A DNA stretch of 64,000 nucleotides from Dehalococcoidia bacterium (lineage in GTDB: Bacteria > Chloroflexota > Dehalococcoidia > Lucifugimonadales > G963668185): positions 106,832 through 170,831 of the forward strand of contig OZ253485.1 of NCBI GenBank assembly GCA_965261935.1, written 5' to 3'. Below are positions 1,941 through 17,884 of this stretch, piece by piece. The position numbers and the translations under genes are program-made. Positions within the stretch are counted from its first letter, which is position 1; each line of letters opens with the position of its first letter. The notes under the pieces are model-generated. The model searched no databases, was not told where the DNA came from, and saw only the letters and a program-made list of their open reading frames with translations.

Positions 1941-3005
1941 ATGCCCAACTATGAACATCTGAAGAACCGCTTGGACCAGGGTGACGTGATCATCCTGGAT
2001 GGGGCAATCGGGACCGAGCTCCAGACAATGGGTGCCCCCATGGACCCGGCATCGTGGTGCGGCCCGGCCAACTACACGCACCCGGCAACCGTCCGCCTAA
2101 TGCATCAGCGCTACATCCGGGCGGGGGCAGACATCATAACCACCAACACGTTCAACACCATACGCCCTGCGCTGGAGGCGTCCGGTTACACCGACAAGGT
2201 GAGGGAGATAAACACGCGCGCAGTCGACGCGGCGATCGAAGCCAGAGACCGGGTTGCTGGCGATAGAGACGTTTACATCGCCGGCTCTATTGCGTGCCGG
2301 ACGCCCGTTCGCGACTCCAGGACCGGCACGCTGCAGGGTGGCACCGGCTACGGCTACGGCGCCAGCTTCTCGGCGCAGGAGTTACGAGCGTACGTAGACG
2401 AACAGGCCGAGGTCCTGGCCGAGTCCGGGGTTGACTTCTTTCTGATTGAGAACATGTGGGCCGACAACGAGTCCAGGGCGATTTCTACCGAGGCAGCCAA
2501 GGCCACGGGCCTGCCGGTCTGGGTGGCGTTCACAGCCTCAATGGCGCCGGACGGCCAGACCGTCAGGATGGACTTCGGAGGCACCCGCAACGCCTATAGC
2601 GGAGGCATGGGGATGCCTCTGTGGACTTCCGACTGGCGCCCGATCAACCATGAAATGACACTGGCGGAAGGCATGGCGGAAATCATCAGGCTGGAGCCGG
2701 ATGTGCTGGGCGTATTCCACGCTAGGATAGCCGCCACTACTGAGGCGCTGCGTGTCATGCTCGCGCAATGGTCCGGCCCCGTTGTTGCCTATCCTGACTC
2801 CGGTAGGGGGGACTTCATAGAGACCTGGCGCGACGCCAGCCTGACCAATGAAGAGTCTCCGGAGGACCTGATGCATGAGTCCGCCAAGTGGGTGGAAATG
2901 GGAGCACAGGTGATAGGCGGCTGCTGCGGGTTCGGCGCCGACTACATCGAGCCACTGCGCGGTGGCCTGCCGGGCCGCATCCCATCGCCGCGAGTAGCCG
3001 CGTAG
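1941..3005 (+). CDS. Homocysteine S-methyltransferase family protein (Hcy-binding domain; BHMT/MmuM-like)
   Basis: N-terminal ILDGAIGTELQ and C-terminal VIGGCCGFGADYIEPL (zinc-binding GGCCG signature). Full-length 354-aa ORF. Confidence 0.85.
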   Translation: MPNYEHLKNRLDQGDVIILDGAIGTELQTMGAPMDPASWCGPANYTHPATVRLMHQRYIRAGADIITTNTFNTIRPALEASGYTDKVREINTRAVDAAIEARDRVAGDRDVYIAGSIACRTPVRDSRTGTLQGGTGYGYGASFSAQELRAYVDEQAEVLAESGVDFFLIENMWADNESRAISTEAAKATGLPVWVAFTASMAPDGQTVRMDFGGTRNAYSGGMGMPLWTSDWRPINHEMTLAEGMAEIIRLEPDVLGVFHARIAATTEALRVMLAQWSGPVVAYPDSGRGDFIETWRDASLTNEESPEDLMHESAKWVEMGAQVIGGCCGFGADYIEPLRGGLPGRIPSPRVAA

Positions 3006-3143
3006 GCTTGCCTGGCGCAGAGCCAGGTTGCGTGTTTCACACCTTGAGTGGAACGGACAACGCCAGTCCGACTCGGTGGGACTAGCGCACAGTCCAAGCC
3101 TTCGCTGTGAGATGGCCGTCGGCATGTAACGGCCACCGGTGCG

Positions 3144-4367
3144 CTACTCTGCGCTTGCGCCGGCAGCCTTCAGCGTGTCCTCAACCCAGCGGTTGAACCA
3201 GTACGGCCCCGTTTCCTGGCGCGCAAACACGCTCTGGTTATGATGACGGCGTCCGCTCTCGATGCCCGACTGCTGCCACTCCACATTCTGCGCGTCCTGC
3301 AGGTTTGTGATCTGCCATAGCTCGTAGGCCCTCTTGGCATCGAAGTCGTCGCGCTCCATTGTCTCCGGCTCGAACAGGTAGTCCAACGTCAGTTGAAGCG
3401 TTGTCGGGCCCGTCGGAAGAAGCCGCTGCGTGTGCACGAAGTCTGGGTGCGACCTTATGAATAGGCTGGGTCGCATGATCGTGCCGTCCCTCGGGGTGTT
3501 CAGCTCCCTCTCGGTGAGCGTGCTAATCGGCGGTCCGCTGAGTTGGCCGTCCATCGTCCACGTTTTGCCGCCAGGTATGATGTCCGCCCCTCCGGAGAGC
3601 GACATCGTGTCGCCGCCGGACGATCTCCACTCCGGGTCCTGGCGAACGTCCGTTAGGCCCTTGGAGAAAATAGGCACCAGGCTGATCAGCTCCGGGTGAA
3701 CTGAAGGGCAGTGGAAACATTCCAGAAAGTTCTCGAACCACAGTTTCCAGTTCGCCTTTAGCTCAGCAACGTAGCGAAAGCCCAGCCGCAGGTCTTCCAG
3801 CCGGTAGTTCTTGAGCCTCTCCGGCGCGTCGCCGAGTGCGTCCCCCAGGGGCTCGGCCCGGTCACCGGCCAGGTTCACGAACACGAATCCGCCCCATTCA
3901 CCAACGGCTACGTCGTACAGTGAGTAGTCTTTCATTTCGAAGTCGGCAGACTCTAGCTGGTGCGGCGTCGCGATCAGGTCCCCCTCCAGCGAGTAGGTCC
4001 ACGCGTGGTACGGACAGACGATGGAGCCGCCTTCGAAGCGGCCCTCGTCCTGCGTGCACAGTATCGAGCCGCGGTGCCGGCACGTGTTGTGGAACGCTCG
4101 GACGTTGCCCCGCAGGTCCCTGGTTACGACGAGGTTCTGCCCGCCGATTGTGACGACCTTATAGTCCCTGGGAGAGGCCACCTCTTCCGAGCGACACGCG
4201 AAGATCCACATGCCGTACCAGAAGACGTCGAGCTCTTTGCGGTAGTGTTCCGGGTCGTAGTGCCAGCGACTAGGGAAGCTCTTGCCTGTCTCGTCGAGCA
4301 ACAGCGTTGGCCGACGCTCCGCGCTAACAGAAGTGGCTAGGTTTTCCAGCTTTGATTCCGAGTTCAA
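3144..4367 (-). CDS. Rieske [2Fe-2S] non-haem-iron oxygenase alpha subunit, paralog 1 (GbcA/CntA/Stc2-like)
   Basis: CRHRGSILC...CPYHAWTY Rieske motif. NWKLWFENFLECFHCPSVHPEL mononuclear-iron motif. The listed 602-aa ORF (to 4952) is a read-through of the out-of-frame 3' end of the upstream paralog. The most plausible start is the TTG at 4365-4367, which overlaps the TGA of paralog 2 and has GGAG about 10 nt upstream. The start is uncertain by a few codons. Confidence 0.85.
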   Translation of the reverse strand: MNSESKLENLATSVSAERRPTLLLDETGKSFPSRWHYDPEHYRKELDVFWYGMWIFACRSEEVASPRDYKVVTIGGQNLVVTRDLRGNVRAFHNTCRHRGSILCTQDEGRFEGGSIVCPYHAWTYSLEGDLIATPHQLESADFEMKDYSLYDVAVGEWGGFVFVNLAGDRAEPLGDALGDAPERLKNYRLEDLRLGFRYVAELKANWKLWFENFLECFHCPSVHPELISLVPIFSKGLTDVRQDPEWRSSGGDTMSLSGGADIIPGGKTWTMDGQLSGPPISTLTERELNTPRDGTIMRPSLFIRSHPDFVHTQRLLPTGPTTLQLTLDYLFEPETMERDDFDAKRAYELWQITNLQDAQNVEWQQSGIESGRRHHNQSVFARQETGPYWFNRWVEDTLKAAGASAE

Positions 4368-5599
4368 GGAGTGCTTGCTCCGTTCATCTTCTCCTGCACC
4401 CACTGGTTGAAGGCGTTGGGCCCCGTCTCCTGTATCGCGAACACGCTGCGATCGTGGACCCTGCGCCCGCCCTCGATGCCCGCCTGTTGCCATTCCACGT
4501 TTTGCGCGTCCTGCTGGTTCGTGATGTGCCACAGCTCGTACGCGCGCTTGGCTTCGAAGTCGTCGCGCTCCATCGTTTCCGGCTCGAACAGGTAGTCCCA
4601 CGTCAACTGGAGCGTGTTCGGACCGGTCGGCAGCAGACGCTGCGTGTGGACGTAGTCCGGGTGCGTGCTCATGAAAAGGCTGGGCCGCAGCACCGTACCG
4701 TTCACCGGATGCATGAGCTCCTGTTCGGTGAGCGTGCTGATCGGCGGGCCGCTCAGCTTGCCGTCCATCGTCCACGTCATGCCGCCTGGGATGATGTCCG
4801 CACCCACCAGCCTCATCGACTCTCCGCCGCTTGTCCGCCACTCCGGGTCCTGCCGCACATCCACGAGGCCCTTGGCATAGATCGGAACGAGGTTGATCAG
4901 TTCCGGGTGGACCTGCGGGCAGTGGAAGCACTCCGTGTAGTTCTCGAACCACAGCTTCCAGTTTGCCTTGAGTTCCGCGACGTACCGGAAGCCGAGGCGC
5001 AGGTCCTCCAGCCGGTAGTTACTGAGTCTCTGCGGCGCGTCGCCCAGCGCGTCTTCCAGCGGCTCCGCACGGTCGCCAGCGAGGTTCACGAACACCAGGC
5101 CGCCCCATTCGCCCACGGCCACGCCGTACAGCGAGTAGTCTTTCTTGTCGAAGTCGGCCGACTCCAGCTGGTGCGGTGTCGCGATCAGATCGCCCTCCAG
5201 CGAGTATGTCCACGCGTGGTACGGGCAGACTATCGATCCGCCCTCGAACCGTCCGGCGTCCCGTGTGCACAGGATGGAGCCCCGGTGCCGGCACGTGTTA
5301 TGGAACGCTCGGACGTTGCCCTTAAGATCCCGGGTGATGACGACGTTCTGGTCGCCAATGGAGACAACCTTGTAGTCCCTGGCCGAGGCGACTTCCTCGG
5401 AGCGGCACGCGTAGATCCACATGCTGTACCAGAAGATATCGAGTTCCTTCCGGTGGTGGTCGGGGTCGAAGTGCCAGTGGTTCGGGAAGCTCTTCCCCAT
5501 GCCTTCCAGCAGCTCCAGTGGCCGAATCGACGCGCTTGAAGACCGCACCTCGATCTGGTCGCCATAGACGGTGCCACAGCAATCGCTCTGCTGCGTCAT
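4364..5599 (-). CDS. Rieske non-haem-iron oxygenase alpha subunit, paralog 2
   Basis: CRHRGSILC...CPYHAWTY; NWKLWFENYTECFHCPQVHPEL; 411 aa. Closest by eye to paralogs 1 and 8 (VNLAGDRAEPL segment). Confidence 0.9.
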   Translation of the reverse strand: MTQQSDCCGTVYGDQIEVRSSSASIRPLELLEGMGKSFPNHWHFDPDHHRKELDIFWYSMWIYACRSEEVASARDYKVVSIGDQNVVITRDLKGNVRAFHNTCRHRGSILCTRDAGRFEGGSIVCPYHAWTYSLEGDLIATPHQLESADFDKKDYSLYGVAVGEWGGLVFVNLAGDRAEPLEDALGDAPQRLSNYRLEDLRLGFRYVAELKANWKLWFENYTECFHCPQVHPELINLVPIYAKGLVDVRQDPEWRTSGGESMRLVGADIIPGGMTWTMDGKLSGPPISTLTEQELMHPVNGTVLRPSLFMSTHPDYVHTQRLLPTGPNTLQLTWDYLFEPETMERDDFEAKRAYELWHITNQQDAQNVEWQQAGIEGGRRVHDRSVFAIQETGPNAFNQWVQEKMNGASTP

Positions 5600-5644
5600 T
5601 CGTGTACCTCCCTTGGTCTTCCCCCTGCCCCTGGCGTTTCGCGG

Positions 5645-6862
5645 TTACGAATCGCGACTGATCACTACTTGCCCCGCGGCTCCCATGGTCTCCATCACCC
5701 ACTGGTTGAAATGGTGCGGCCCAGTCTCCTGAGGCACGAACACGCTGTGCTCGTGGTGCTTGCGGCCGCCCTCGATGCCGGCCTGCTGCCACTCGACGTT
5801 TTGCGCGTCCTGCAGGTTGGTGATGTGCCAGAGCTCGTATGCCCGCTTGGCGTCGAAGTCGTCACGCTCCATCGTCTCCGGCTCGAACAGGTAGTCCCAC
5901 GTGAGCTGCACCGTGGTCGGGCTCGTGGGGATCATCTGCTGCGTGTGCACGTAGTCCGGGTGCGCGATGAAGAAGAGATTTGGCCTGAGCTGCATCCCGG
6001 TGATGACGCTGTTCGCCTCCTCTTCCGTCAGTCCGCTGAACGTGGGGCCGCTGAGCTGGCCGTCCATCGTCCACGTCTTGCCGCCCGGTATGATGTCCAT
6101 GACGTGAAGCAGCATCGTCTCGCCGCCGGAGGTCCTCCACTCCGGGTCCTGCTGGACGCCGCTCAGCCCCTTGGAAAATATCGGCACAATGTTGACGAGC
6201 TCAGGGTGCACCTGCGGGCAGTGGAAGCACTCGGTGAAGTTCTCGAACCAGAGCTTCCAGTTCGCCTTGATCTCCTTCACGTAGCGAAAGCCCAGCCTGA
6301 GTCTCTCCGGGTGGTAGTTATTGAACTTGAGGGGAGTGTCTCCCAGCGTCTCTTCGAGCGGATCGGCCGCTCCCGGCGTGAGATTGACGAACACGAAGCC
6401 GCCCCACTCGCCGACTGCCGCTTCGTAGAGTGAGTAGGCTTTCATGTCGAAGTCGGCCGACTCAAGCTGGTGCGGCGTGGCGATCAGGTTCCCTTCCAAC
6501 GAGTACGTCCACGCGTGGTACGGGCAGACGATGGAGCCGCCCTCGAAGCGGCCCTCGTTCTGCGTGCACAGGATCGACCCTCGGTGCCGGCACGTGTTGT
6601 GGAAGGCCCTGAGGTTGCCCTTCAGGTCCCTTGTCAGGACGATGTTCTGCCCGCCGATCGCGACGACCTTGTAATCCCTCGGCGAGGCCACCTCTTCCGA
6701 CCTGCAGACGTTGATCCACATGCGGTACCAGAACGCCTCCAGCTCCTTCTGGTAGTGCTCGGAATCGGAATGCCAGCTGTTCGGGAAGCTGGGCTCCAGC
6801 TTGTCAAGCGTGTTGCGCCTGTGCTGGTAGGTGTACAGTTGCATCTCAGGGACCTCCTTCAC
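5645..6862 (-). CDS. Rieske non-haem-iron oxygenase alpha subunit, paralog 3
   Basis: Same Rieske and Fe-site motifs (ENFTECFHCPQVHPEL). AAGGAGG Shine-Dalgarno sequence upstream of the ATG at 6862. Confidence 0.9.
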   Translation of the reverse strand: MKEVPEMQLYTYQHRRNTLDKLEPSFPNSWHSDSEHYQKELEAFWYRMWINVCRSEEVASPRDYKVVAIGGQNIVLTRDLKGNLRAFHNTCRHRGSILCTQNEGRFEGGSIVCPYHAWTYSLEGNLIATPHQLESADFDMKAYSLYEAAVGEWGGFVFVNLTPGAADPLEETLGDTPLKFNNYHPERLRLGFRYVKEIKANWKLWFENFTECFHCPQVHPELVNIVPIFSKGLSGVQQDPEWRTSGGETMLLHVMDIIPGGKTWTMDGQLSGPTFSGLTEEEANSVITGMQLRPNLFFIAHPDYVHTQQMIPTSPTTVQLTWDYLFEPETMERDDFDAKRAYELWHITNLQDAQNVEWQQAGIEGGRKHHEHSVFVPQETGPHHFNQWVMETMGAAGQVVISRDS

Positions 6863-6895
6863 TAACGCCGCGCACTCCGTTCGGCCCGCTGCCGC

Positions 6896-8103
6896 CTAGC
6901 CGTCGCGCCTGAGCACCTCATGTCCCGCGGACTCAATGATGTCCATGACCCAGTTGTTGAAATGGTGCGGCCCCTTCTCCTGTGGCACGAAGACACTGTA
7001 GTCGTGGTGATTGAGGCTGCTCTGGATCCCCGCCTGCTGCCACTCGACGTTCTGCGCGTCCTGCAGGTTGGTGATTTGCCACAGCTCGTACGCGCGCTTC
7101 ACGTCGAAGTCCTCACGCTCCATCGTCTCCGGTTCGAACAGGTAGTCCCACGTTAGCTGCACCGTGGTCGGGCTCGTGGGAATCATTTGCTGTGTGTGCA
7201 CGTAGTCGGGGTGCGCGATAAAGAAGAAGTTTGGTCGGAGTTGCATCCCTGTGACGGCGCGGTTGGCCTCTTCTTCCGTCAGGCCGCTGAATGTCGGACC
7301 GCTGAGTTTGCCGTCTATCGTCCACGTCCTGCCGCCGGGGATTATGTCGGAGCCGCCGTGCAGCACCATCGTGTCGCCTCCGGAAGGCTTCCACTCCGGG
7401 TCTTCGCTGACTCGTATAAGGCCCTTGGCATAGATCGGCACAATGTTGATGAGCTCCGGGTGGACCTGCGGGCAGTGGTAGCATTCCGAGAAGTTCTCGA
7501 ACCACAGCTTCCAGTTCCCTTTGATTTCATGCACGTACCGGAAGCCCACCTTCAGCCTTTCCGGGTGGTAGTTCTTGAACTTCTCAGGGGTGTCTCCCAG
7601 TGCCGCTTCGAGCGGCTCGGCCTCCTCGGGCGTGAGGTTCACGAACACGAAGCCGCCCCATTCTCCGACCGCCGCCTCGTAAAGCGAATAGTCTTTCATG
7701 TCGAAGTCGGCCGACTCCAGCTGGTGTGGCGTGGCGATCAGCCTGCCCTCCAGCGAGTACGTCCACGCATGGTAAGGGCAGACGATGGACCCGCCCTCGA
7801 AGCGCCCCTTCGCGTGTCCGTGCAGAGAATCGAGCCCCGGTGCCTGCAGGTGTTGTGAAACGCCCTCAGGTTGCCTTTGAGGTCCCTTGTTAGGACGAGG
7901 TTCTGATCGCCGACGCTGACAACCTTATAGTCCCTGGGCGAGGCGACCTCGTCCGATCTGCAGACGTTGATCCACATCCTGTACCAGAATGCGTCCAGAT
8001 CCTTCTGGTAGTCCTCGGGATCGTAGTGCCAACTATTGGGGAAGCTCGGCTCCATCTTGTCGAGACTGCGTTGACTGGTCTCGTACGAAAACAACTGTGT
8101 CAT
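6896..8103 (-). pseudogene. Rieske oxygenase alpha subunit, paralog 4, disrupted by a frameshift
   Basis: The N-terminal ORF 7738..8103 matches the paralogs up to CRHRGSILCT, then runs out of frame (DTRRGASRAG...). The other frame resumes with AKGRFEGGSIVCPYHAWTYSLEG and continues into ORF 6896..7699. Between the CT codons and GRFEGG there are 11 nt, where the paralogs have 9 (QDE). This is a +2/-1 indel near 7811-7820. Confidence 0.85.
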
Positions 8104-8169
8104 GCGTGTCTCCTCTCTGCTCGCTGGATATCCCGCTCACGCCGCGCACTCCGTTCGGCCCGCTGCCGC

Positions 8170-9381
8170 CTAACGGTCGCGCCTGAGCACCTCGTGCCCC
8201 CCGGCATCCATGACCTCCATGACCCACTGGTTGAACTGGTGCGGACCTGTCTCCTGCGGCGTGAACACGCTGTAGTCGTGGTGCTTGCTGCCGCCTTCGA
8301 TGCCTGCCTGCTGCCACTCGACGTTCTGGGCGTCCTGCAGGTTCGTGATGTGCCACAACTCGTAGGCGCGCTTTGCGTTGAAGTCCTTGCGCTCCATCGT
8401 CTCCGGCTCGAACAGGTAGTCCCACGTTAGCTGTACCGTAGTCGGGCTCGTGGGGATCATCTGCTGCGTATGCACGTAGTCGGGGTGCGCAATGAAGAAG
8501 AAGTTTGGCCGGAGTTGCATCCCATTGATAACACTGGTGGCCTCCTCTTCCGTCAGGCCGCTGAACGTCGGGCCGCTGAGTTGGCCGTCCATGGTCCAAG
8601 TCCTACCGCCGGGGATGATATCGGAGCCGCCGTGCAGCACCATCGTGTCCCCGCCGGAAGGCTTCCACTCCGGGTCTTGATTGACTCGACCAAGCCCCTT
8701 CGAAAAGATCGGCACGATGCTGATGAGCTCCGGATGGACCGTCGGGCAGTGGTAGCACTCCGAGAAGTTCTCAAACCACAGTTTCCAGTTCCCCTTGATC
8801 TCATGCACGTACCGGAAGCCCACCTTCAGCCGTTCCGGGTGGTAGTTCTTGAACTTCTCCGGCGTGTCTCCCAGCGCCGCTTCGAGCGGCTCGGCCGGGT
8901 CCGGGGACAGGTTTACGAACACGAACCCGCCCCATTCTCCGACAGCCACGTCGTAGAGCGAGTAGTCTTTCATTGCGAAGTCGGCCGACTCAAGCTGGTG
9001 CGGCGTGGCGATCAGCTTCCCCTCCAGTGAGTACGTCCACGCGTGGTACGGGCAGACTATCGATCCGCCTTCAAACCGGCCCTCGTCTTGCGTGCACAGG
9101 ATCGAGCCACGGTGCCGGCACGTGTTGTGGAACGCTCTCAGTTTGCCCTTGAGGTCCCTCGTGAGGACGAGGTTCTGATCGCCAATGCTGACAACCTTGT
9201 AGTCTCGCGGCGAGGCGATTTCGTCCGACCTGCAGACGTTGATCCACATGCGATACCAGAAGGCTTTGAGTTCCTTCTGGTAATGCTCAGGATCGTAGTG
9301 CCAGCTATTGGGGAAGCTCGGCTCCAGCTTGTCGAGCCTCCTGATCCTCATCCTGCTCTCGTACGAGTACAACTGCGTCAT
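8170..9381 (-). CDS. Rieske non-haem-iron oxygenase alpha subunit, paralog 5
   Basis: CRHRGSILC...CPYHAWTY; NWKLWFENFSECYHCPTVHPEL; 403 aa. Confidence 0.9.
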   Translation of the reverse strand: MTQLYSYESRMRIRRLDKLEPSFPNSWHYDPEHYQKELKAFWYRMWINVCRSDEIASPRDYKVVSIGDQNLVLTRDLKGKLRAFHNTCRHRGSILCTQDEGRFEGGSIVCPYHAWTYSLEGKLIATPHQLESADFAMKDYSLYDVAVGEWGGFVFVNLSPDPAEPLEAALGDTPEKFKNYHPERLKVGFRYVHEIKGNWKLWFENFSECYHCPTVHPELISIVPIFSKGLGRVNQDPEWKPSGGDTMVLHGGSDIIPGGRTWTMDGQLSGPTFSGLTEEEATSVINGMQLRPNFFFIAHPDYVHTQQMIPTSPTTVQLTWDYLFEPETMERKDFNAKRAYELWHITNLQDAQNVEWQQAGIEGGSKHHDYSVFTPQETGPHQFNQWVMEVMDAGGHEVLRRDR

Positions 9382-9449
9382 GCAGGTCTCCTTTCTGTTC
9401 GCTGCGTCTCCTGCTCACGCCGTGACGAAGGTGCCCGGACGGCCCGGGT

Positions 9450-10661
9450 CTAGCCGTCGCGCCTGATTACCTCGTGTCCGGCGGCCTCCATGATCTCCAT
9501 GACCCAGTTGTTGAACTGGTGCGGCCCGGTCTCCTGCGGCACGAACACGCTGTACTCGTGGTGCTTGCTGCCGCCCTCGATGCCCGCCTGCTGCCACTCG
9601 ACGTTCTGCGCGTCCTGAAGGTTCGTGATGTGCCAAAGCTCGTAGGCTCGCTTGGCGTCGAAGTCCTCGCGCTCCATCGTCTCAGGCTCGAACAAGTAGT
9701 CCCATGTCAGTTGGACCGTCGTCGGGCTGGTGGGAATCATCTGCTGAGTGTGGACGTAATCCGGATGCGCCACAAAGAAGAAGTTCGGTCTTAGCTGCAT
9801 GCCGCTGATGACGCTGTTCGCCTCCTCTTCCGTAAGGCCGCTGAACGCAGGGCCGCTGAGCTGGCCGTCCATCGTCCACGTCCGGCCGCCAGGAATGATG
9901 TCCGAGCCGCCGTGCAGCAGCATCGTTTCTCCGCCGGACGGCTTCCACTCCGGGTCCTGCCTGACGTTGCCCAAGCCCTTCGAGTAAATCGGCACAATGT
10001 TGATGAGCTCCGGATGGACCTGCGGGCAGTGGAAGCACTCGCTGTAGTTCTCGAACCACAGCTTCCAGTTGGCCTTGATTTCATGCACGTATCTGAACCC
10101 AAGCTTGAGCCTCTCCGGGTGGTAGTTCTTGAACTTCACGGGAGTGTCCCCCAAGGCCTTCTCCAGGGGCTCTGCCTCTTCCGGCGCCAGGTTCACGAAG
10201 ATGAATCCGCCCCATTCGCCGACCGCCACGTCGTACAGCGAGTAGTCTTTCATGTCGAAGTCGGCCGACTCGAGCTGGTGCGGCGTGGCGATCAGCTTCC
10301 CTTCCAGCGAGTACGTCCACGCGTGGTACGGACACACGATGGAGCCGCCCTCGAACCGCCCCTCGTCCTGCGTGCACAGGATCGAACCGCGGTGTCGGCA
10401 CGTGTTATGGAACGCTCTCAGGTTGCCCCGCAGGTCCCTGGTGACGACGATGTTCTGCTCGCCAATGGATACGACCTTGTAGTCCCGGGGCGAGGCGACC
10501 TCATCCGACCTGCAGACGTTGATCCACATCCGATACCAGAACGTCTCCAGTTCCTTCCTGTAGTGTTCCGGGTCGTAGTGCCAGCTATTCGGGAAACTGG
10601 GCTCCATCTCGTCAAGGACAAGCTTCCTGTTCCGCCTTTGTTCGTAGCTGTAGACCTGCAT
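9450..10661 (-). CDS. Rieske non-haem-iron oxygenase alpha subunit, paralog 6
   Basis: Same motifs (ENYSECFHCPQVHPEL); 403 aa. The 5' third is identical at DNA level to paralog 7. Confidence 0.9.
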   Translation of the reverse strand: MQVYSYEQRRNRKLVLDEMEPSFPNSWHYDPEHYRKELETFWYRMWINVCRSDEVASPRDYKVVSIGEQNIVVTRDLRGNLRAFHNTCRHRGSILCTQDEGRFEGGSIVCPYHAWTYSLEGKLIATPHQLESADFDMKDYSLYDVAVGEWGGFIFVNLAPEEAEPLEKALGDTPVKFKNYHPERLKLGFRYVHEIKANWKLWFENYSECFHCPQVHPELINIVPIYSKGLGNVRQDPEWKPSGGETMLLHGGSDIIPGGRTWTMDGQLSGPAFSGLTEEEANSVISGMQLRPNFFFVAHPDYVHTQQMIPTSPTTVQLTWDYLFEPETMEREDFDAKRAYELWHITNLQDAQNVEWQQAGIEGGSKHHEYSVFVPQETGPHQFNNWVMEIMEAAGHEVIRRDG

Positions 10662-10732
10662 CTGATAACCTCCGTCGCCGGCTCGACCGCTTTTCGTACG
10701 ATTGCCACTCTTTCCTTTACGTCATTCCGTGC

Positions 10733-11938
10733 TTACGAATCGCGCCTCCGCACCGTGTGCCCGGCCGACTCCATGACCTCCATCACCCAGTTGTTGAACT
10801 GGTGCGGTCCCGTCTCCTGCGGTACGAACACACTGTACTCGTGGTGCTTGCGGCCGCCCTCGATTCCCGCCTGCTGCCACTCGACGTTCTGCGCGTCCTG
10901 CAGGTTCGTGATGTGCCACAGCTCGTACCCGCGCTTGGCATCGAAATCGTCGCGCTCCATCGTCTCAGGCTCGAACAGGTAGTCCCACGTCAGTTGCACC
11001 GTCGTCGGGCTCGTGGGAATCATCTGCTGAGTGTGGACGTAGTCCGGGTGCGCAACGAAGAAGAAGTTCGGCCTGAGCTGCATCCCACCGATGGTGCAGT
11101 TCGCCTCTTCTTCCGTCAGGCCGCTGAACGCGGGGCCGCTGAGCTGGCCGTCCATCGTCCACGTCCTGCCGCCCGGTATGATGTCCGAGCCGCCGTGCAG
11201 CAGCATCGTTTCCCCGCCGGACGGCTTCCACTCCGGGTCCTCCCTGACGTCGCCTAGTCCCTTGGAGTAAATCGGCACAATACTGATGAGCTCGGGGTGG
11301 ACCTGCGGGCAGTGGAAGCACTCGCTGTAGTTCTCGAACCACAGCTTCCAGTTCGCCTTGACCTCATGGACGTACCGGAAACCCAGCTTAAGCCTCTCTG
11401 GGTGGTAGTTCTTGAACTTCAGCGGAGTGTCACCCAGCGACTTTTCGAGCGGCTCGGCCTCTTCCGGCGTGAGGTTAACGAACACGAAGCCGCCCCACTC
11501 GCCGACTGCCGCCTCGTAAAGTGAGTAAGCTTTCATGTCGAAATCGGCCGACTCAAGCTGGTGCGGCGTGGCGATCAGCTTCCCTTCCAGCGAGTACGTC
11601 CACGCGTGGTACGGACACACGATGGAGCCGCCCTCGAACCGCCCCTCGTCCTGCGTGCACAGGATCGAACCGCGGTGTCGGCACGTGTTATGGAACGCTC
11701 TCAGGTTGCCCCGCAGGTCCCTGGTGACGACGATGTTCTGCTCGCCAATGGATACGACCTTGTAGTCCCGGGGCGAGGCGACCTCATCCGACCTGCAGAC
11801 GTTGATCCACATCCGATACCAGAACGTCTCCAGTTCCTTCCTGTAGTGTTCCGGGTCGTAGTGCCAGCTGTTCGGAAAGCTGGGTTCCAGCTTGTCCAGC
11901 ACCACGCGCGATCTCTGGTCGTAGTCGTACACTTGCAT
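10733..11938 (-). CDS. Rieske non-haem-iron oxygenase alpha subunit, paralog 7
   Basis: Same motifs; 401 aa. Confidence 0.9.
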   Translation of the reverse strand: MQVYDYDQRSRVVLDKLEPSFPNSWHYDPEHYRKELETFWYRMWINVCRSDEVASPRDYKVVSIGEQNIVVTRDLRGNLRAFHNTCRHRGSILCTQDEGRFEGGSIVCPYHAWTYSLEGKLIATPHQLESADFDMKAYSLYEAAVGEWGGFVFVNLTPEEAEPLEKSLGDTPLKFKNYHPERLKLGFRYVHEVKANWKLWFENYSECFHCPQVHPELISIVPIYSKGLGDVREDPEWKPSGGETMLLHGGSDIIPGGRTWTMDGQLSGPAFSGLTEEEANCTIGGMQLRPNFFFVAHPDYVHTQQMIPTSPTTVQLTWDYLFEPETMERDDFDAKRGYELWHITNLQDAQNVEWQQAGIEGGRKHHEYSVFVPQETGPHQFNNWVMEVMESAGHTVRRRDS

Positions 11939-11992
11939 CTCTGGGACCTCCTGCCTGTTCTGGGCCGCGTGTTGCTATTTGCTGGCAAGTAG

Positions 11993-13171
11993 TTAGATTG
12001 CCCCGGCCTCCTTGAGCTTGTCCGCCACCCACCTGTTGAATCGCCACGGTCCCTGTTCGTTAGATACGAACACGCTCTCCTTGTGCACGTTTCGCCCGGC
12101 CATGAGCCCGGCCTGCTGCCACTCCACGTTCTGGGCGTCCTGCAAGTTCGTGATGTGCCATAGCTCGTATGCGCGCTTGGCGTCGAAGTCCTCGCGCTCC
12201 ATCGTCTCCGGCTCGAACAGGTAGTCCCACGTTATCTCGACCGTGGACGGACTCGTGGGCAGCATGCGCTGTGTGTGAACGTAGTCCGGGTGCATGTTCA
12301 GGAAGAAGCTCGGTCTGAGCATGCCGCCGTTCTGCGGACTGTCCAGCTCGTGTTCATTGAGGCCGCTGAGCGCCGGTCCGCTCAACTGACCGTCCATGGT
12401 CCAGGTCTTCGCGCCGGGGATGATGTCCAGCTCCCTGACCATCGTGTCGCCGCCGGTGCCTTCCCAGTCGCGAGCGAAGCCCCCGTCCAGCGCCAGTGCA
12501 TAGATCGGCACAACGGCGCACAGCTCCGGGTGGACCTGCGGGCAGTGGAAGCACTCCATGTAGTTCTCGAACCACAGCTTCCAGTTCGTCTTGATCTCGG
12601 CTACGTACCTGTATCCCAGGCGCAGGTCCTCAGTACGGTAGTTGGCGAACCGTTCCGGGAAGTCGCCGAGTACGTTTTCCAACGGCTCGGCCTTATCCCC
12701 CGCCAGGTTCACGAACACGAAGCCGCCCCACTCGCCGACGGCCACGCCGTACAGCGAGTAGTCTTTCATGGCGAAGTCGGCCGACTCCAGCTGGTGTGGC
12801 GTCGCGATCAGGCCGCCCTCCAGCGAGTAGGTCCACGCATGGTACGGGCAGACAATCGACCCGCCTTCGAAGCGGCCCTCGTCCTGGGTGCACAAGATGG
12901 AGCCCCGGTGCCGGCAGGTGTTGTGGAACGCGCGGACGTTGCCCTTGAGGTCCCTGGTGACAATGACGTTCTGATCGCCTATGGAGACGACTTTGTAGTC
13001 CCTCGGTGAGGCAACGTCCTCAGAGCGGCACGCGTACATCCACATGCTGTACCAGAAGACGTCCAATTCCTTCCGGTGGTGCTCCGGGTCGTAGTGCCAG
13101 TGGTTGGGGAAGCTCGATTCCAGGTGGCCGATGGCTGCTGGACTGTTAGCAAATGACTGCCGCGTTAGCAT
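11993..13171 (-). CDS. Rieske non-haem-iron oxygenase alpha subunit, paralog 8
   Basis: CRHRGSILC...CPYHAWTY; NWKLWFENYMECFHCPQVHPEL. Divergent segment after the Fe site (VVPIYALALDGGFARDWEGTGG). Confidence 0.9.
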   Translation of the reverse strand: MLTRQSFANSPAAIGHLESSFPNHWHYDPEHHRKELDVFWYSMWMYACRSEDVASPRDYKVVSIGDQNVIVTRDLKGNVRAFHNTCRHRGSILCTQDEGRFEGGSIVCPYHAWTYSLEGGLIATPHQLESADFAMKDYSLYGVAVGEWGGFVFVNLAGDKAEPLENVLGDFPERFANYRTEDLRLGYRYVAEIKTNWKLWFENYMECFHCPQVHPELCAVVPIYALALDGGFARDWEGTGGDTMVRELDIIPGAKTWTMDGQLSGPALSGLNEHELDSPQNGGMLRPSFFLNMHPDYVHTQRMLPTSPSTVEITWDYLFEPETMEREDFDAKRAYELWHITNLQDAQNVEWQQAGLMAGRNVHKESVFVSNEQGPWRFNRWVADKLKEAGAI

Positions 13172-13211
13172 GGCGCGTTACCTCCGCTCGGGTGCAGTTT
13201 CGGCTATGTTA

Positions 13212-13251
13212 GACGAAAACGCGCGGCCCCGCCATGCGTCGGCGGGGCCGC
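13212..13251 (-). terminator. Candidate Rho-independent terminator downstream of paralog 9
   Basis: On the minus strand: GCGGCCCCGCC - GACGCAT - GGCGGGGCCGC (11-bp perfect GC stem, plus-strand 13223-13233 / 13241-13251), followed by GCGTTTTCGTCT. Confidence 0.6.
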
Positions 13252-13279
13252 TGTTCAGTCCTTTCGGATGTGCAGTCGG

Positions 13280-14500
13280 CTAGTACCTGGTGTCCCCGCC
13301 GTAGTCCGGGTCGGTCTCCTCGCCGAGCCGCTCCAGCACCCACTGGTGGAAGCGCCAGGGCCCAATCTCCTGGGGCACGAAGGTGCAGTGATCGGCCTCC
13401 CGGCTGGCCAGTCCCTCCTGCTGCCACTTGCAGTTCTGGGCGTCTTGCCGGTTGGTGATGTCCCACAAATCGACCATCTTGTCGATGTCGAAGTCCGGCC
13501 TCTCCATGGAAGACGGCTCGAACAGCCAGTCGTACACCATCTGTACGCTGGTCGGGCCTGTGGGCAGCATCCGGTGAGTGTGAATGAAGTCAGGGTGGAT
13601 GTTGATAAACAGGTTGGGCCTGAGCACGGACGCAGTGTAGCCGGTGCTCCGTTCCTCCTCGGTGAGGTCGCGGAAGAAGGGCACGTTCGTGGTGCCGTCC
13701 ATGGTGAGGGTCACCTTGCCGGGCGCCAACCGCTGCGTTCGGCTCATCGTCTGGCCGCCCGTAGGCTCGAAGTCCTTGCCTTGCTCCATTAGCATCATGC
13801 CGTCGTCTTTCTGACGGTCGCTGAGCAGTCCCTCGCCGTAGATCGGGATCACGTCACACAACTCCGGATGGACCCCCGGGCAGTGGAAGCACTCCGAGAA
13901 GTTCTCGAACAGCAGCTTCCAGTTGGCCTCCACGTCGATGACGATCCGCTTGCCCAGCTTCAACTCTTCCATGTGGTAGTTCTGAAGTCGGGCAGGGGTG
14001 TTGCCCAGCGTATGCTCGAGCGGTTCCGCGTTAGCGCCGGCGAAATTCACGAAGATGTACCCGGCCCACTCTCCCACGGCCACCCCGTACAGCGAATACT
14101 CGTTCATGTCGAAGTCTGCCGACTCCAACTGATGCGGCGTGGCGATCAGGCTGCCCTCCAGCGAGTAGGTCCATGCGTGGTAGGGGCAGACCACCGAACC
14201 GCCCTCGAACCGGCCCGACTCCTCCGTGCACAGGATGGATCCGCGGTGCCGGCAGGTGTTGTGGAACGCGCGCAGCACACCCTTGAGGTCCCTGGTGATG
14301 ACGCAGCTCTGTTCGCCGACGGTGAAGACTTTGTAGTCCCTGGGCGACGCCACCTCCTCGGCCCGGCAAGCGTACACCCACATGTCGTACCAGAAAACGT
14401 CCAGTTCTTTTTGGTGCTGCTCAGGATCGTAGAAGTAACGGTATGGAAGTCCGTTCTTGATCTGCCTGAGTATCGATGGACCCGCAAATTGAGCCTGCAT
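13280..14500 (-). CDS. Rieske non-haem-iron oxygenase alpha subunit, paralog 9 (most divergent)
   Basis: CRHRGSILC...CPYHAWTY; NWKLLFENFSECFHCPGVHPEL. It has a longer insertion after the Fe site (GEGLLSDRQKDDGMMLMEQGKDFEPTGGQTMSRTQRL). Confidence 0.9.
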   Translation of the reverse strand: MQAQFAGPSILRQIKNGLPYRYFYDPEQHQKELDVFWYDMWVYACRAEEVASPRDYKVFTVGEQSCVITRDLKGVLRAFHNTCRHRGSILCTEESGRFEGGSVVCPYHAWTYSLEGSLIATPHQLESADFDMNEYSLYGVAVGEWAGYIFVNFAGANAEPLEHTLGNTPARLQNYHMEELKLGKRIVIDVEANWKLLFENFSECFHCPGVHPELCDVIPIYGEGLLSDRQKDDGMMLMEQGKDFEPTGGQTMSRTQRLAPGKVTLTMDGTTNVPFFRDLTEEERSTGYTASVLRPNLFINIHPDFIHTHRMLPTGPTSVQMVYDWLFEPSSMERPDFDIDKMVDLWDITNRQDAQNCKWQQEGLASREADHCTFVPQEIGPWRFHQWVLERLGEETDPDYGGDTRY

Positions 14501-14615
14501 ATTCCCTCCTGGTCGTGTGCGCTGCCTTCGGTATATGGTGCGCCGATGATTGAATACAGGCGCGTAACGCGATTCTAGTTGCCAATTCAGTCCACTGCAA
14601 CACTAAAACTCATTG

Positions 14616-14640
14616 GTTACTCCACGTGCTGGGGAGTAAC
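14616..14640. promoter_or_regulatory. Candidate operator: 8-9-8 inverted repeat in the divergent paralog-9 / MFS intergenic region
   Basis: GTTACTCC-acgtgctgg-GGAGTAAC, about 45 bp upstream of the MFS start at 14686. GTAAC pentamers recur nearby (cgcGTAACgcg, tcGTAACaac). Confidence 0.3.
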
Positions 14641-14685
14641 ATTGCTTCTTCGTAACAACAGGGGCGGCGTAAACGGAGAGGTAGG

Positions 14686-15960
14686 ATGACAAGCCGGTCC
14701 CAATCCCCGGCCCAGAGGGCTTCTCAGCCGCGGCGAAGGCTGTTCGTAGCCTTCAGCATAAAGGGCTATGTCTGGTTCTGGGCCAGCATGTTCTGGTCGG
14801 CCGCCGGGATGAGCGGCCGGATGCTCGCCCAGGGCTGGCTCGTCGTCGACCTGACGGACGAGAGCGGCGCCAGCGCGCCGCTATGGCTCGGCATCCTTTC
14901 TGCGGTCCGCGCCATCGGCAGCACTTTCCTGTCGCCCATCGGTGGCGTAATTATCGACAGATTCGACCGCCGCTTACTGCTGGTCGCGCTGCAGACGTTC
15001 AACATGACCACCAGCCTTGTGCTGGGGACCCTCGTTATCATGGATTGGGTGCAGATGTGGCACCTGATAGTCATCTCGCTGCTTCAGGGCATCATCATGG
15101 CTATCAGCATGCCGACCCGCAACGCGGTCACGTTCGACCTCGCGGGTCGCGAGAGCCTGATGAATGCGATGTCCGCCAACTACCTGGCTTCGGACGTCAT
15201 GCGCATAGCGAGCCCTGTGATTGCCGGTGTGATCACGGACCTTGCGGGCACCGGCGGGGCGTTCTTCTTCCTCGCAAGCTCGTTCATCGTCGCAACCTAC
15301 TGCATTCTTCGGCTGCCGCGCACTGAAATGAAGCCCAGACCCCGCCGCTCCGTTTGGTTAAGCCTGACGGAAGGCGCCTCTTACGCATGCCGCAACAGGA
15401 ACATGCGAATGATCATGGTCATGGACATACTCATGTCATGCTTCGCTTACAGCTCGCAACTCATGCTTCCCTTCTTCGCGAGGGAGGTCCTGGGTGTCAG
15501 CGCGACGGGGCTAGGTGTCCTAATGGGAGTTATGGGTGTCGGGTCCCTGATGACCGGCGTGCTTATCGCAAGCTCCGCCAGCCTGAAGCCCACGCACGCA
15601 CGTTACCTGGTGGCCTCCCTGGGATACTCGGCGATGGTGATCGGGTGGGCCGTGTCGCCGTGGTTCGCGCTTGCGGCCTTGTTCCTCTTCCTGAATGGAA
15701 TGGCCTCGGGCGGGTTCAACTCACTGTCTTCTTCCCTCATACAGGTTGTTTCTTCTGAGGAGTACCGCGGAAGGATGATAGGTTTGCAGGGCCTCACCTG
15801 GGGAACGATGTCACTCGGAGGAATGGCCATAGGGGGCGCTGCCACCTTCGTCAGCATAACCTTTGCGCTGTCGGGGCTCGCGGCCATTCCCGCTCTCCTT
15901 TCGGTGGTCTATCTTGTCAGGGCGAAGCAGTACTCTACCGATCCCGAGGATCAGGGCTGA
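14686..15960 (+). CDS. MFS transporter
   Basis: 424 aa with multiple hydrophobic spans. The N-terminal FxxxFxxxxxxWFWASMFWSAAG... layout is typical of MFS_3/EntS-like transporters. Confidence 0.8.
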   Translation: MTSRSQSPAQRASQPRRRLFVAFSIKGYVWFWASMFWSAAGMSGRMLAQGWLVVDLTDESGASAPLWLGILSAVRAIGSTFLSPIGGVIIDRFDRRLLLVALQTFNMTTSLVLGTLVIMDWVQMWHLIVISLLQGIIMAISMPTRNAVTFDLAGRESLMNAMSANYLASDVMRIASPVIAGVITDLAGTGGAFFFLASSFIVATYCILRLPRTEMKPRPRRSVWLSLTEGASYACRNRNMRMIMVMDILMSCFAYSSQLMLPFFAREVLGVSATGLGVLMGVMGVGSLMTGVLIASSASLKPTHARYLVASLGYSAMVIGWAVSPWFALAALFLFLNGMASGGFNSLSSSLIQVVSSEEYRGRMIGLQGLTWGTMSLGGMAIGGAATFVSITFALSGLAAIPALLSVVYLVRAKQYSTDPEDQG

Positions 15961-16047
15961 CCCGCCCCTCTTACGGGCCCATCTGCTGACGGCGGCGGTT
16001 CCGCTTAGTAGCATAAGTAGACGCACTAAATTTCCGGAGGTGTTCCC

Positions 16048-16383
16048 ATGCCGGCAGGACAAGTCTTCGCGATTGCCGACCTCATGGCGCAGCAGAGCGA
16101 GAGCGAAGGGTTCTGGTACGAGTTTCTCCGTGTACCGAGGATGTACTGCGGCCTCTACGTGTTGCCCGCCGGGACCAAAGACCCACAGCAGCCCCACGCG
16201 GACGACGAGGTCTACTACGTCGTGAAAGGGCGCGGCGTCATACAGGTGGAAGGGGACAACATGCCGTTGCAGGAGGGCAGCGTCGCGTACGTCGCCGCGG
16301 ACGCCAAGCACCACTTCCACTCCATCACCGAAGACCTGATCCTATTAGTCTTCTTCGAGGCATCCGGAAGCTCGGAAGGGTAG
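16048..16383 (+). CDS. Cupin domain protein
   Basis: 111 aa. PHADDEVYYVVKGRG...EGSVAYVAADAKHHFHS is a cupin_2 two-motif pattern. Confidence 0.75.
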   Translation: MPAGQVFAIADLMAQQSESEGFWYEFLRVPRMYCGLYVLPAGTKDPQQPHADDEVYYVVKGRGVIQVEGDNMPLQEGSVAYVAADAKHHFHSITEDLILLVFFEASGSSEG

Positions 16384-16497
16384 GGAAGTACGCAAGTCGT
16401 GCGTTGCCCATAGGCGGCCCCGATCTTACACTGTGACATCCACGACCAAGAAGGCTTTGCGAGATGTGGCCGCTAGTTGACGGGCGTCGGAGGGACC

Positions 16498-16713
16498 ATG
16501 GGAGCATCGACCGAGATCATATTCGAAGTGACTGAAGCTGTTGAGGGCGGCCTCGATGCCCGGGCGCTTGGCTATAGCATCTTCACACAATGCGAGGACT
16601 GGTCAGACCTCAAAGCAGTGGTCAAGGATGCCGTTTACTGTCACTTCGGCGACCAGGAAATGCCTAAGGTCATAAGACTGCATTTCGTCAAGGGCGAAGC
16701 CATCGCAGTGTGA
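16498..16713 (+). CDS. hicB: HicB-like antitoxin (HicB_lk_antitox type)
   Basis: MGASTEIIFEVTEAVEGGLDARALGYSIFTQCEDWSDLKAVVKDAVYCHFGDQEMPKVIRLHFV resembles the small HicB-like family. GGAGGGA Shine-Dalgarno sequence before the ATG at 16498. 4-nt overlap with the downstream toxin gene. Confidence 0.7.
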   Translation: MGASTEIIFEVTEAVEGGLDARALGYSIFTQCEDWSDLKAVVKDAVYCHFGDQEMPKVIRLHFVKGEAIAV

Positions 16714-16961
16714 GACTGCTCCGAGACCTGTCGGGCCAAGACTTGGTAGTGTTGTTGCGCCGTCAATACGCTTACCAAGTCTTGCGGCAAAGGGGCAGCC
16801 ATGTGACATTGACCCGAACCGTTGGCGGCGTAGCCGATAGCATTACCGTTCCACTCCACCGCGCCGTTCGCGTAGGAACACTAGGTGGAATAGTTGCCGA
16901 TATCTCTTCCCATTTTGGCTTTCGCCAAAATGAAGTGCGTGCCGCGCTCTTCGGAGGTTAA
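16710..16961 (+). CDS. hicA: HicA family mRNA-interferase toxin
   Basis: LRDLSGQDLVVLLRR..YQVLRQRGSHVTLTR....SITVPLHRAVRVGTLGGIVADISSHFG shows the YcfA/HicA layout with the GSH catalytic motif. Confidence 0.75.
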   Translation: MRLLRDLSGQDLVVLLRRQYAYQVLRQRGSHVTLTRTVGGVADSITVPLHRAVRVGTLGGIVADISSHFGFRQNEVRAALFGG

Positions 16962-17046
16962 GTACTGCCTGTCCGCAACTACGTGAGCTGCGTGCTTCGG
17001 ACGCTACGCACTGGCCATAGCTGAGTCGAGGCTGGAAAACTAGGCA

Positions 17047-17181
17047 ATGGCAGATGACATGCCGTTGCAGGAAGGCAGCGTGACCTACGTCGCCGCGGAT
17101 GCCAGGCACCACTTCCACTCCATCACCGAGGACCTGACCCTGCTCGTCTTCTTCGAAGTGTCTGGAAGTTCTGAAGGGTAG
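17047..17181 (+). pseudogene. Duplicated 3' fragment of the cupin gene (44-codon remnant)
   Basis: 17053-17191 aligns with 16255-16393 (the cupin 3' end plus 10 nt past the stop) at roughly 88% identity by eye. It translates as MADDMPLQEGSVTYVAADARHHFHSITEDLTLLVFFEVSGSSEG*. Confidence 0.8.
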
Positions 17182-17282
17182 GGAAGTACGCGGGCCTGGC
17201 AGTGCCCTTCGGCAGCGCCGCTCTCATGCAAAGCACTTGCGGTTCAGCCATTATTGCCGGCCACAAGTGTGTGGTGTATGGT

Positions 17283-17492
17283 ATGTGTATGACACGCACC
17301 AACGTAGACATCGATGACAGCGCGTGCGCGGAGGTGATGCGGCGCTATCGCTTGGCGACCAAGCGAGAGGCCATTAACTATGCGCTACGTGTACTGGCGG
17401 CAGAACCAGCTTCTGTCGACGAAGCCCGCGCACTTCGGGGGACCGGGTGGGAAGGGGATCTGGACGCGATGCGCGCCTGTCGCGCGCCGTGA
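17283..17492 (+). CDS. vapB: VapB-type antitoxin (DUF2191/Rv0299-like)
   Basis: M(C)MTRTNVDIDDSACAEVMRRYRLATKREAINYALRVLA is the typical N-terminus of this antitoxin family. Its stop overlaps the vapC GTG (GTGA). Confidence 0.75.
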   Translation: MCMTRTNVDIDDSACAEVMRRYRLATKREAINYALRVLAAEPASVDEARALRGTGWEGDLDAMRACRAP

Positions 17493-17884
17493 TCCTCCTC
17501 GACACCTCAGCATGGATAGAGTTTCTCAGGAACACTGAATCTAGAGTCTGCGAACAGGTAGACGAACTGCTGGCTGGAGATATCGCAGTCTGCGATCCCG
17601 TTCGGATGGAAGTGTTCGCTGGTGCACGTGACGAAACACACCTGGCCAGCCTGAGGCGGCTTCTGGCGCGAGGGGTGCTGTTGCATACTAGGGCCACGGA
17701 CTACGAAGATGCAGCCGCGCTCTATCGCCGTTGCAGGCGGCAAGGCGAGACCATACGCAAACTCATAGATTGCCTGATCGCTTCAATTGCGATTCGCGCC
17801 GATGTGCCGGTCCTGCACAACGACTCCGACTTCGACGTGCTCGCCAGACACACTGAGCTACAAGTCTATGGGACAGCAACCTGA
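17489..17884 (+). CDS. vapC: PIN-domain toxin VapC
   Basis: VILLDTSAWIEFL...D..R.E...G....D...IASIAIRADVPVLHNDSDFD shows the PIN acidic residues in the expected order. A GTG start at 17489 is preferred over the listed 17447. Confidence 0.8.
   Translation: MILLDTSAWIEFLRNTESRVCEQVDELLAGDIAVCDPVRMEVFAGARDETHLASLRRLLARGVLLHTRATDYEDAAALYRRCRRQGETIRKLIDCLIASIAIRADVPVLHNDSDFDVLARHTELQVYGTAT

Follow-up and report, generated by a model that had tools for sequence, protein, structure and literature searches.

Probable gene conversion between adjacent members of a Rieske oxygenase gene array in an uncultured Dehalococcoidia bacterium

How do two adjacent genes of a diverged tandem family come to share a block of perfect identity with sharp edges? 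The question is raised by a 64,000-nucleotide stretch of a Dehalococcoidia bacterium (assembly GCA_965261935.1, contig OZ253485.1, positions 106,832 to 170,831; hereafter the window), in which nine paralogous genes, c1 to c9, form a tandem array on the minus strand (3144..14500). Two neighbours in this array, c6 (9450..10661, 403 aa) and c7 (10733..11938, 401 aa), are intact genes for proteins resembling the alpha subunit of Rieske oxygenases. Direct string comparison confirmed the identity that the original prediction had read from the letters alone: positions 10273-10586 in c6 equal 11556-11869 in c7 base for base, a match of 314 bp between copies offset by 1283 bp, and the first mismatches bordering the tract are G/A at 10272/11555 and A/G at 10587/11870. 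We conclude that this identity very probably represents a genuine tract of ectopic homologous recombination, i.e. gene conversion, between old paralogs, with the c7 copy as the probable donor and the c6 copy as the probable recipient.

The tract forms a mosaic with both flanks. In 75-bp sliding windows, c6 and c7 are 100% identical within the tract, compared with 74–87% upstream and 80–83% downstream of it (upstream and downstream refer to the genes, which run from higher to lower coordinates). The two genes are the closest pair among the nine copies; their overall identity of 90.0% includes the tract, and by arithmetic from that figure the remainder is ~86% identical. Downstream of the tract, the identity is 88.0% and 84 of the 275 codons differ, 62 of them synonymously, matching the expectation that the rest of the genes would be about 90% identical with mostly synonymous differences. 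On the upstream side, the 75-nt 5′ end of c6 (10587..10661) is diverged from c7, bears a 6-nt insertion relative to it, and is 97–100% identical to the c6 copies of five close strains introduced below (L085, L167, L168, L170 and L171); on the downstream side, c6 is back to c6-type sequence at 10272 and retains a c6-type 3′ end and the spacer between c6 and c5. The tract itself encodes residues 26–130 of c6 (SWHYDPEHY...LIATPHQL), and the whole Pfam Rieske [2Fe-2S] domain (residues 46–130) lies inside it.

Chance is excluded as the cause of this identity. No other pair of paralogs has fewer than 41 differences among the 314 tract columns; even with the lowest of these pairwise divergences, the probability of 314 identical positions is at most ~8e-20; and the next-longest exact runs are 56 bp in c6/c7 and 41 bp in any other pair. 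Equally long identical tracts throughout the array, which the original prediction had named as the sign of a very recent whole-gene duplication, are thus not observed. A GENECONV-style test, in which polymorphic sites are shuffled, singled out the tract as the only globally significant fragment: it spans 83 consecutive concordant polymorphic sites among c3–c7 (permutation maximum, 31 in 2000) and 136 sites among all nine copies (permutation maximum, 59 in 1000). Two of the checks that had been proposed with the prediction, sliding-window identity and a GENECONV-type test, agree on a sharp two-sided mosaic with a significant tract. Zero differences in 314 bp give a 95% upper bound of ~1% for divergence inside the tract, against ~12–14% outside.

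Related arrays place this identity later than the duplication that produced c6 and c7. The comparison comprised four more distant arrays (L081–L084), whose c6 ortholog is ~87–90% identical at the nucleotide level, and five arrays from close strains: L085, L168 and L170 are three contigs of sample ERZ28763718, and L167 and L171 come from ERZ25074053. L085 was among the arrays found through relatives of the c6 protein; L167, L168, L170 and L171 were found through c9 and c7 orthologs. L081–L084 hold distinct orthologs of c6 and c7, with the diagnostic 6-nt 5′ insertion of c6 present, and in the tract columns the two genes differ at 30 sites in L081 and at 39 in L082. No paralog pair in L081–L084 or in L085 has an identical run longer than 68 bp. 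Given these distinct orthologs, the c6/c7 duplication is old, and the identity of the tract is a later homogenisation.

The array of L085, which like that of the window has nine copies, stands out by its c6. L085 is 98.4–99.8% identical to the window in c9, c8, c7, c5, c4, c3 and c2 (>99% in six copies other than c6) and 95.9% identical in c1; for c6, by contrast, the figure is only 89.9%, between flanking genes at >99%. One block of differences coincides with the tract, comprising 25 sites from 10563 to 10287, all of them within it; outside the tract, the 5′ and 3′ ends of the window c6 are 97–100% identical to L085 c6. Within the tract, 28 of 314 positions separate c6 from c7 in L085, and the c7 genes of the two strains differ from each other at only 3. 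The result is a clear phylogenetic incongruence: over these 314 bp, the window c6 is nearer to its own c7 (no differences) than to the c6 of L085 (25 differences). The minimal converted segment of c6 spans 10287..10563, the first to the last site at which the unconverted L085 c6 departs from c7-type sequence, and it could extend at most to the full 314 bp of identity. Resolution of the endpoints is limited to 29 bp at the 5′ junction and 15 bp at the 3′ junction, because unconverted c6 and c7 are already identical over those intervals. Twenty-one of the 25 differences are silent, and four replace an amino acid (K36R, S65N, R78K and N80S, each written as window state, residue and L085 state).

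The tract is shared with other close strains. The c6-type copies of L167, L168 (c6a and c6b) and L170 start with the c6 5′ end and continue as c7-type sequence across the whole tract, with the same 5′ and 3′ junction sequences as in the window; in L167 and in L168 c6a and c6b, the tract differs from the strain's own c7 at 1–2 sites. A further copy in L168, c6c, has a c7-type tract broken by deletions, and the c6 of L171 combines the c6-specific 5′ end with c7-type sequence that reaches, from the 5′ side, across only some three-quarters of the tract. The c6 of L170 is 99–100% identical to that of L085 over alignment columns 0–100 and 400–1000 and is 100% identical to c7 in the tract; judged from their sequences, the two appear to be the before and after states of one c6 allele, found in one sample. 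The c7 tract sequence is common to all six close strains (the window included), c6 is polymorphic for it, and c6-type tract sequence was found in c7 in none of the strains compared. The tract would thus have arisen in this species-level lineage after its split from the lineages of L081–L084, and it is polymorphic among co-occurring strains. Its description as recent in the original prediction holds relative to the c6/c7 duplication, but not in the sense of an event private to this genome, as four other close assemblies carry the tract. Among more remote sequences, a 53-nt pattern across the c6/c7-type 5′ junction had no exact match in the JGI metagenomes, and a protein-based scan of those metagenomes gave matches of ≤42% identity only (L086 was too distant to inform); a contig scan with the c6 protein gave, among the matches listed, identities of ≤55%, the best of which (L001) is a different single-copy locus.

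The original proposal, that gene conversion or unequal recombination between neighbouring copies gave rise to a two-sided mosaic, is therefore supported, and the comparative arrays strengthen it. We propose that the region of c6 encoding residues 26–130, in the 5′ third of the gene, was overwritten non-reciprocally by its upstream neighbour c7, an event that would have left in place the 75-nt 5′ end of c6 and the two-thirds of the gene that encode the catalytic domain, with both endpoints falling in short stretches where the genes were already identical. The conversion probably had a single origin in the species-level lineage and was then inherited or spread among strains by homologous recombination. 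Once present, the identical tract probably serves in its turn as a substrate for unequal crossing-over, to which one sister strain would owe its additional hybrid copies of c6. The direction was likely from c7 to c6, because the tract sequence of c7 is shared by the six close strains (3 of 314 sites differ between the window c7 and its orthologs in L085, L167 and L168), while c6 is polymorphic and L085 c6 looks unconverted. Provided that L085 c6 is indeed the unconverted allele, the exchange was also non-reciprocal, with the donor unchanged.

Several points weigh against this interpretation. The exact c6 protein of the window occurs on one contig only. The direction depends on L085 c6 being unconverted, and a later import of that sequence from an unsampled donor would leave the direction open. 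An argument for c7 as donor from the continuity of its similarity to c3 proved non-diagnostic and was dropped: c3 and c7 are ~93% identical on either side of the 3′ boundary, and L085 c6 is equally c3-like in the tract. The end product alone cannot separate classical conversion from unequal crossovers that duplicate and then delete. A final point concerns a T..T variant shared by c7 (11618/11615) and c6 (10335/10332) of the window and also present in the tract-less c6 of L085; every c7 ortholog has C..C at these positions, as do the c6 copies of L167, L168 and L170. The variant needs an extra event, either a second c6/c7 exchange in the lineage of the window or bidirectional, patchy repair of heteroduplex. 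We favor at least one further c6/c7 exchange in that lineage, which would explain both the shared T..T and the perfect identity in the window, of which the sister strains fall 1–2 sites short.

The route by duplication and deletion deserves the most detailed comparison. It invokes misalignment of c6 with c7 and two reciprocal unequal crossovers: one near the 5′ junction would yield an extra copy and a hybrid that is c6 at its 5′ end and c7 at its 3′ end, and another near the 3′ junction, between hybrid and c6, would remove the extra copy and leave c6 with an internal c7 segment. L168 holds just such intermediates (12563-17589), namely c6a, in which the c6 5′ end is joined to c7-type sequence through to the stop codon and after which a duplicated c7–c6 spacer follows, and three c6-like copies accompanied by three identical 71-bp spacers of the c7–c6 type, a spacer present once in the window (10662..10732, minus strand) and triplicated there along with the hybrid genes. 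L170 contains a deletion hybrid, a c6/c5 fusion gene (9278-10489), and lacks c5; and copy number varies, with one to three c6-like copies per sister strain and ten genes called as Rieske oxygenases in the distant L081. However, all three L168 c6 copies already bear the tract (c6c with deletions), so that the duplications in L168 are most simply read as crossovers within a pre-existing tract; moreover, copy number is equal in the window and in L085, and two crossovers are less parsimonious than one conversion. We therefore regard this route as possible but rather unlikely. A simpler version, in which the window c6 is the hybrid of a single unequal crossover, was rejected, as the gene has two junctions, a c6-type 3′ end and the c6–c5 spacer; L168 c6a is the copy that fits that description.

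Each of the three remaining explanations is at odds with the comparative data. A consensus in which c6 was chimerised with c7 during assembly or polishing, through repeat collapse, graph mis-traversal or cross-mapped reads, would suit a protein known in its exact form from one contig and an array that is hard to assemble (in JGI/IMG metagenomes, related genes are found on contigs of only 1.3–3.7 kb); but both junctions recur in L167, L168 and L170 and the 5′ junction in L171, on contigs of two other assemblies that each carry private differences, the window c6 lies, together with c7, on a chromosome-scale contig of 3,233,344 bp that we take to be a long-read assembly, and unconverted c6 and c7, with 28 differences in 314 sites, are too divergent for cross-mapping during polishing. 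The tract appears to be real, and an artefact is very unlikely. Retention of identity after a recent whole-gene duplication, with flanks that later diverged or were overwritten so that the tract is a relic, would accord with a c6 that is heavily mosaic (positions 9609-10236 differ by 15% between near-identical strains), but it is highly improbable in view of the distinct c6 and c7 orthologs of L081–L084, which carry the 6-nt insertion and show 30–39 tract differences, and of a c6-specific 5′ end and c6–c5 spacer conserved in all strains. Selective constraint on the nucleotides themselves, imposed by an embedded RNA, a regulatory element or an antisense gene, is scarcely credible: a long antisense ORF (9912-10982, plus strand) does overlap the region, but long plus-strand ORFs lie opposite every copy, as expected in an array of 61% GC, and do not count as evidence of genes; Rfam gave no match anywhere in the window; the other seven paralogs vary at 83–136 sites in the tract columns; and L085 c6 tolerates its 25 changes, mostly silent.

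The proposed conversion from c7 to c6 is not the only exchange recorded in this part of the array. The slot that varies most across the array is c6. A second block in its middle, in the catalytic domain (9609..10236, minus strand) and separate from the tract, differs from L085 c6 at 95 of 628 bp (15%), mostly synonymously, in a background that is >99% identical. No close donor for this block was found among ~70 sampled copies, the best reaching ~90–97% in short windows, and L171 c6 shares its 5′ part, which lies immediately 3′ of the tract; the block looks like an allelic replacement from unsampled strains or paralogs. Elsewhere, differences between the window and L085 are clustered in patches of 16–37 bp, in c5 (9058-9073 and 8358-8374), c7 (10994-11018), c9 (14438-14462), c2 (4832-4853) and c1 (3861-3897), and many of the patch states match other paralogs of the array, which suggests frequent micro-conversion. 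Older, partly decayed mosaics are also visible, with c3 and c7 at 91–95% identity just 3′ of the tract and c4 and c5 at 93–95% in alignment columns 575–675. Together with the hybrids and the fusion gene of the sister strains, these exchanges mark the c7–c6–c5 segment as a recombination hotspot.

These exchanges also bear on the suggestion, made in the original prediction, that conversion homogenises the electron-transfer domain while the catalytic domains stay distinct. That description fits this genome and fails in the sister strains, which have other identical tracts of 293–439 bp, some in the catalytic domain; among these, L167 and L168 c6a have runs of 326 and 439 bp, respectively, identical to their own c7 in the catalytic domain. 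Nothing in the sequences points to a domain-specific process of homogenisation.

The array in which these events took place consists of nine repeat units spaced 1211–1338 bp apart, with pairwise identities of 63–90% among the copies. The four copies that were scanned (c2, c6, c7 and c9) each have a Pfam Rieske domain and a Ring_hydroxyl_A catalytic domain; c6 and c7 score 75 bits for PF00355 and 131–137 bits for PF00848, above the Pfam gathering scores, and their translations contain the cluster-ligand motifs CRH and CPYH (CxH...CxxH pattern), features by which both are predicted to be alpha subunits of Rieske non-heme iron oxygenases. The top NCBIfam match of c6, c7 and c9 is GbcA, the oxygenase subunit of glycine-betaine monooxygenase (NF058607), at 183–205 bits; the curated cut-off is 670, and we therefore treat these genes as relatives of GbcA and not as equivalogs. 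The nearest solved structures are 3VCA, 4QUP and the carnitine oxygenase CntA (6Y8J). The first two, deposited as 'ring-hydroxylating dioxygenase' and 'monooxygenase; demethylase', we take to be the stachydrine demethylase Stc2. The array proteins share the Rieske plus Ring_hydroxyl_A architecture of these alpha-only enzymes of quaternary amines, but only the ~220 N-terminal residues align well.

On one side, the array is flanked by a homocysteine S-methyltransferase gene (1941-3005) and a fragment of a SoxA-like FAD oxidoreductase gene (50-928), and on the other by an MFS transporter gene (14686-15960). A role in the demethylation or oxidation of methylated amines is plausible. Genes for S-adenosylmethionine (SAM) synthetase and S-adenosylhomocysteine (SAH) hydrolase (53180-54388 and 54496-55764) share the window with the array and the homocysteine S-methyltransferase gene, which hints at a link with methyl-group metabolism. 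At ~2200-3400, the window and L085 are ~10% diverged in a second block, which takes in the homocysteine S-methyltransferase gene along with the 3′ end of c1 and was probably imported at the edge of the array by recombination; beyond it, the window has a 228-aa ORF (1080-1766) at a site that holds a 228-aa DUF2461 gene in L082 and L083 and a SAM-methyltransferase gene in L085. Two other copies need comment as gene models. In c4 (6896-8130, minus strand), a 2-bp insertion at 7816-7817, absent from every other copy and from the L085 ortholog (an intact gene call of 401 aa), shifts the frame directly after the Rieske CRHRG motif; the window c4 is either a pseudogene or the site of a consensus error, and the c4 orthologs of L170 and L171 are likewise fragmented in gene calls. 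The 602-aa ORF listed for c1 (3144-4952) is an upstream extension through c2; judged from orthologs of 404–407 aa, c1 starts at ~4367, giving a 4-bp overlap with the c2 stop (4364-4367). The window also contains an IS481-family transposase gene (37329-38513) and a sulfatase gene (23442-24845), and in L167 a reverse-transcriptase (RVT_1) gene (6029-7582) is inserted in the flank beside cupin and MFS genes.

The tufA and tufB genes of Salmonella and E. coli are the classic case of gene conversion and concerted evolution between bacterial paralogs. As in bacterial concerted evolution generally, non-reciprocal exchange here makes paralogs of one genome more alike than orthologs, with sharp ends in stretches of prior identity; unlike in cases of the tufA/tufB type, the partners sit side by side in a tandem array of nine copies, homogenisation is confined to one third of the gene, and the tract is polymorphic among co-occurring strains and not long maintained. 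Concerted evolution in prokaryotes has been surveyed (PMC6053082). Two studies of Mycobacterium tuberculosis report multigene families as hotspots of gene-conversion diversity resolved by long reads (PMC13061034, PMC12046097); conversion and duplication create most between-strain variation at repeated paralogous loci in both systems and are missed by short reads, the difference being that those are antigen and virulence families of a clonal pathogen and this is a catabolic oxygenase array of uncultured environmental Dehalococcoidia. Chimeric genes formed by deletion between paralogs are reported from E. coli evolution experiments (PMC13626634), and the c6/c5 fusion of L170 and the c6/c7 hybrids of L168 would be products of the same kind; the window c6, unlike the chimeras described there, has an internal tract with two junctions instead of a single junction. 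SAR202 Chloroflexi show paralog expansions of ring-hydroxylating (Rieske) dioxygenase alpha subunits, and the present genome resembles them in the many COG4638-type Rieske oxygenase paralogs per genome of marine Dehalococcoidia-related bacteria (PMC6946804); neither 'tandem' nor 'gene conversion' occurs in the text of that paper.

Our analysis thus adds a new, well-documented instance of established gene conversion, and no new mechanism. It means that c6 and c7 are not independent lineages for phylogenies or dN/dS analyses; that the Rieske domain of c6 is that of c7, with four amino-acid replacements relative to the unconverted allele; and that short-read assembly and read mapping are unreliable at the array. 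The array is also structurally unstable, as the tract is ready for unequal crossing-over and the sister strains show extra hybrids and a c6/c5 fusion. It is conceivable, if improbable, that the c7–c6–c5 segment is a selected hotspot of 'cassette shuffling' that pairs Rieske and catalytic domains anew and thereby creates new substrate ranges. Room for this idea is left because c6 alleles differ by 15% in a >99% identical background and strains have one to three c6-like copies; counting against it, most of the differences are synonymous, and there is no sign of targeting or of positive selection. If it were true, such shuffling would be a way in which paralog-rich marine or soil Dehalococcoidia diversify their oxygenases against heterogeneous organic matter. 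Beyond that possibility, the locus provides a population-level example of concerted evolution together with birth-and-death evolution in an expanded catabolic gene family of uncultured Dehalococcoidia.

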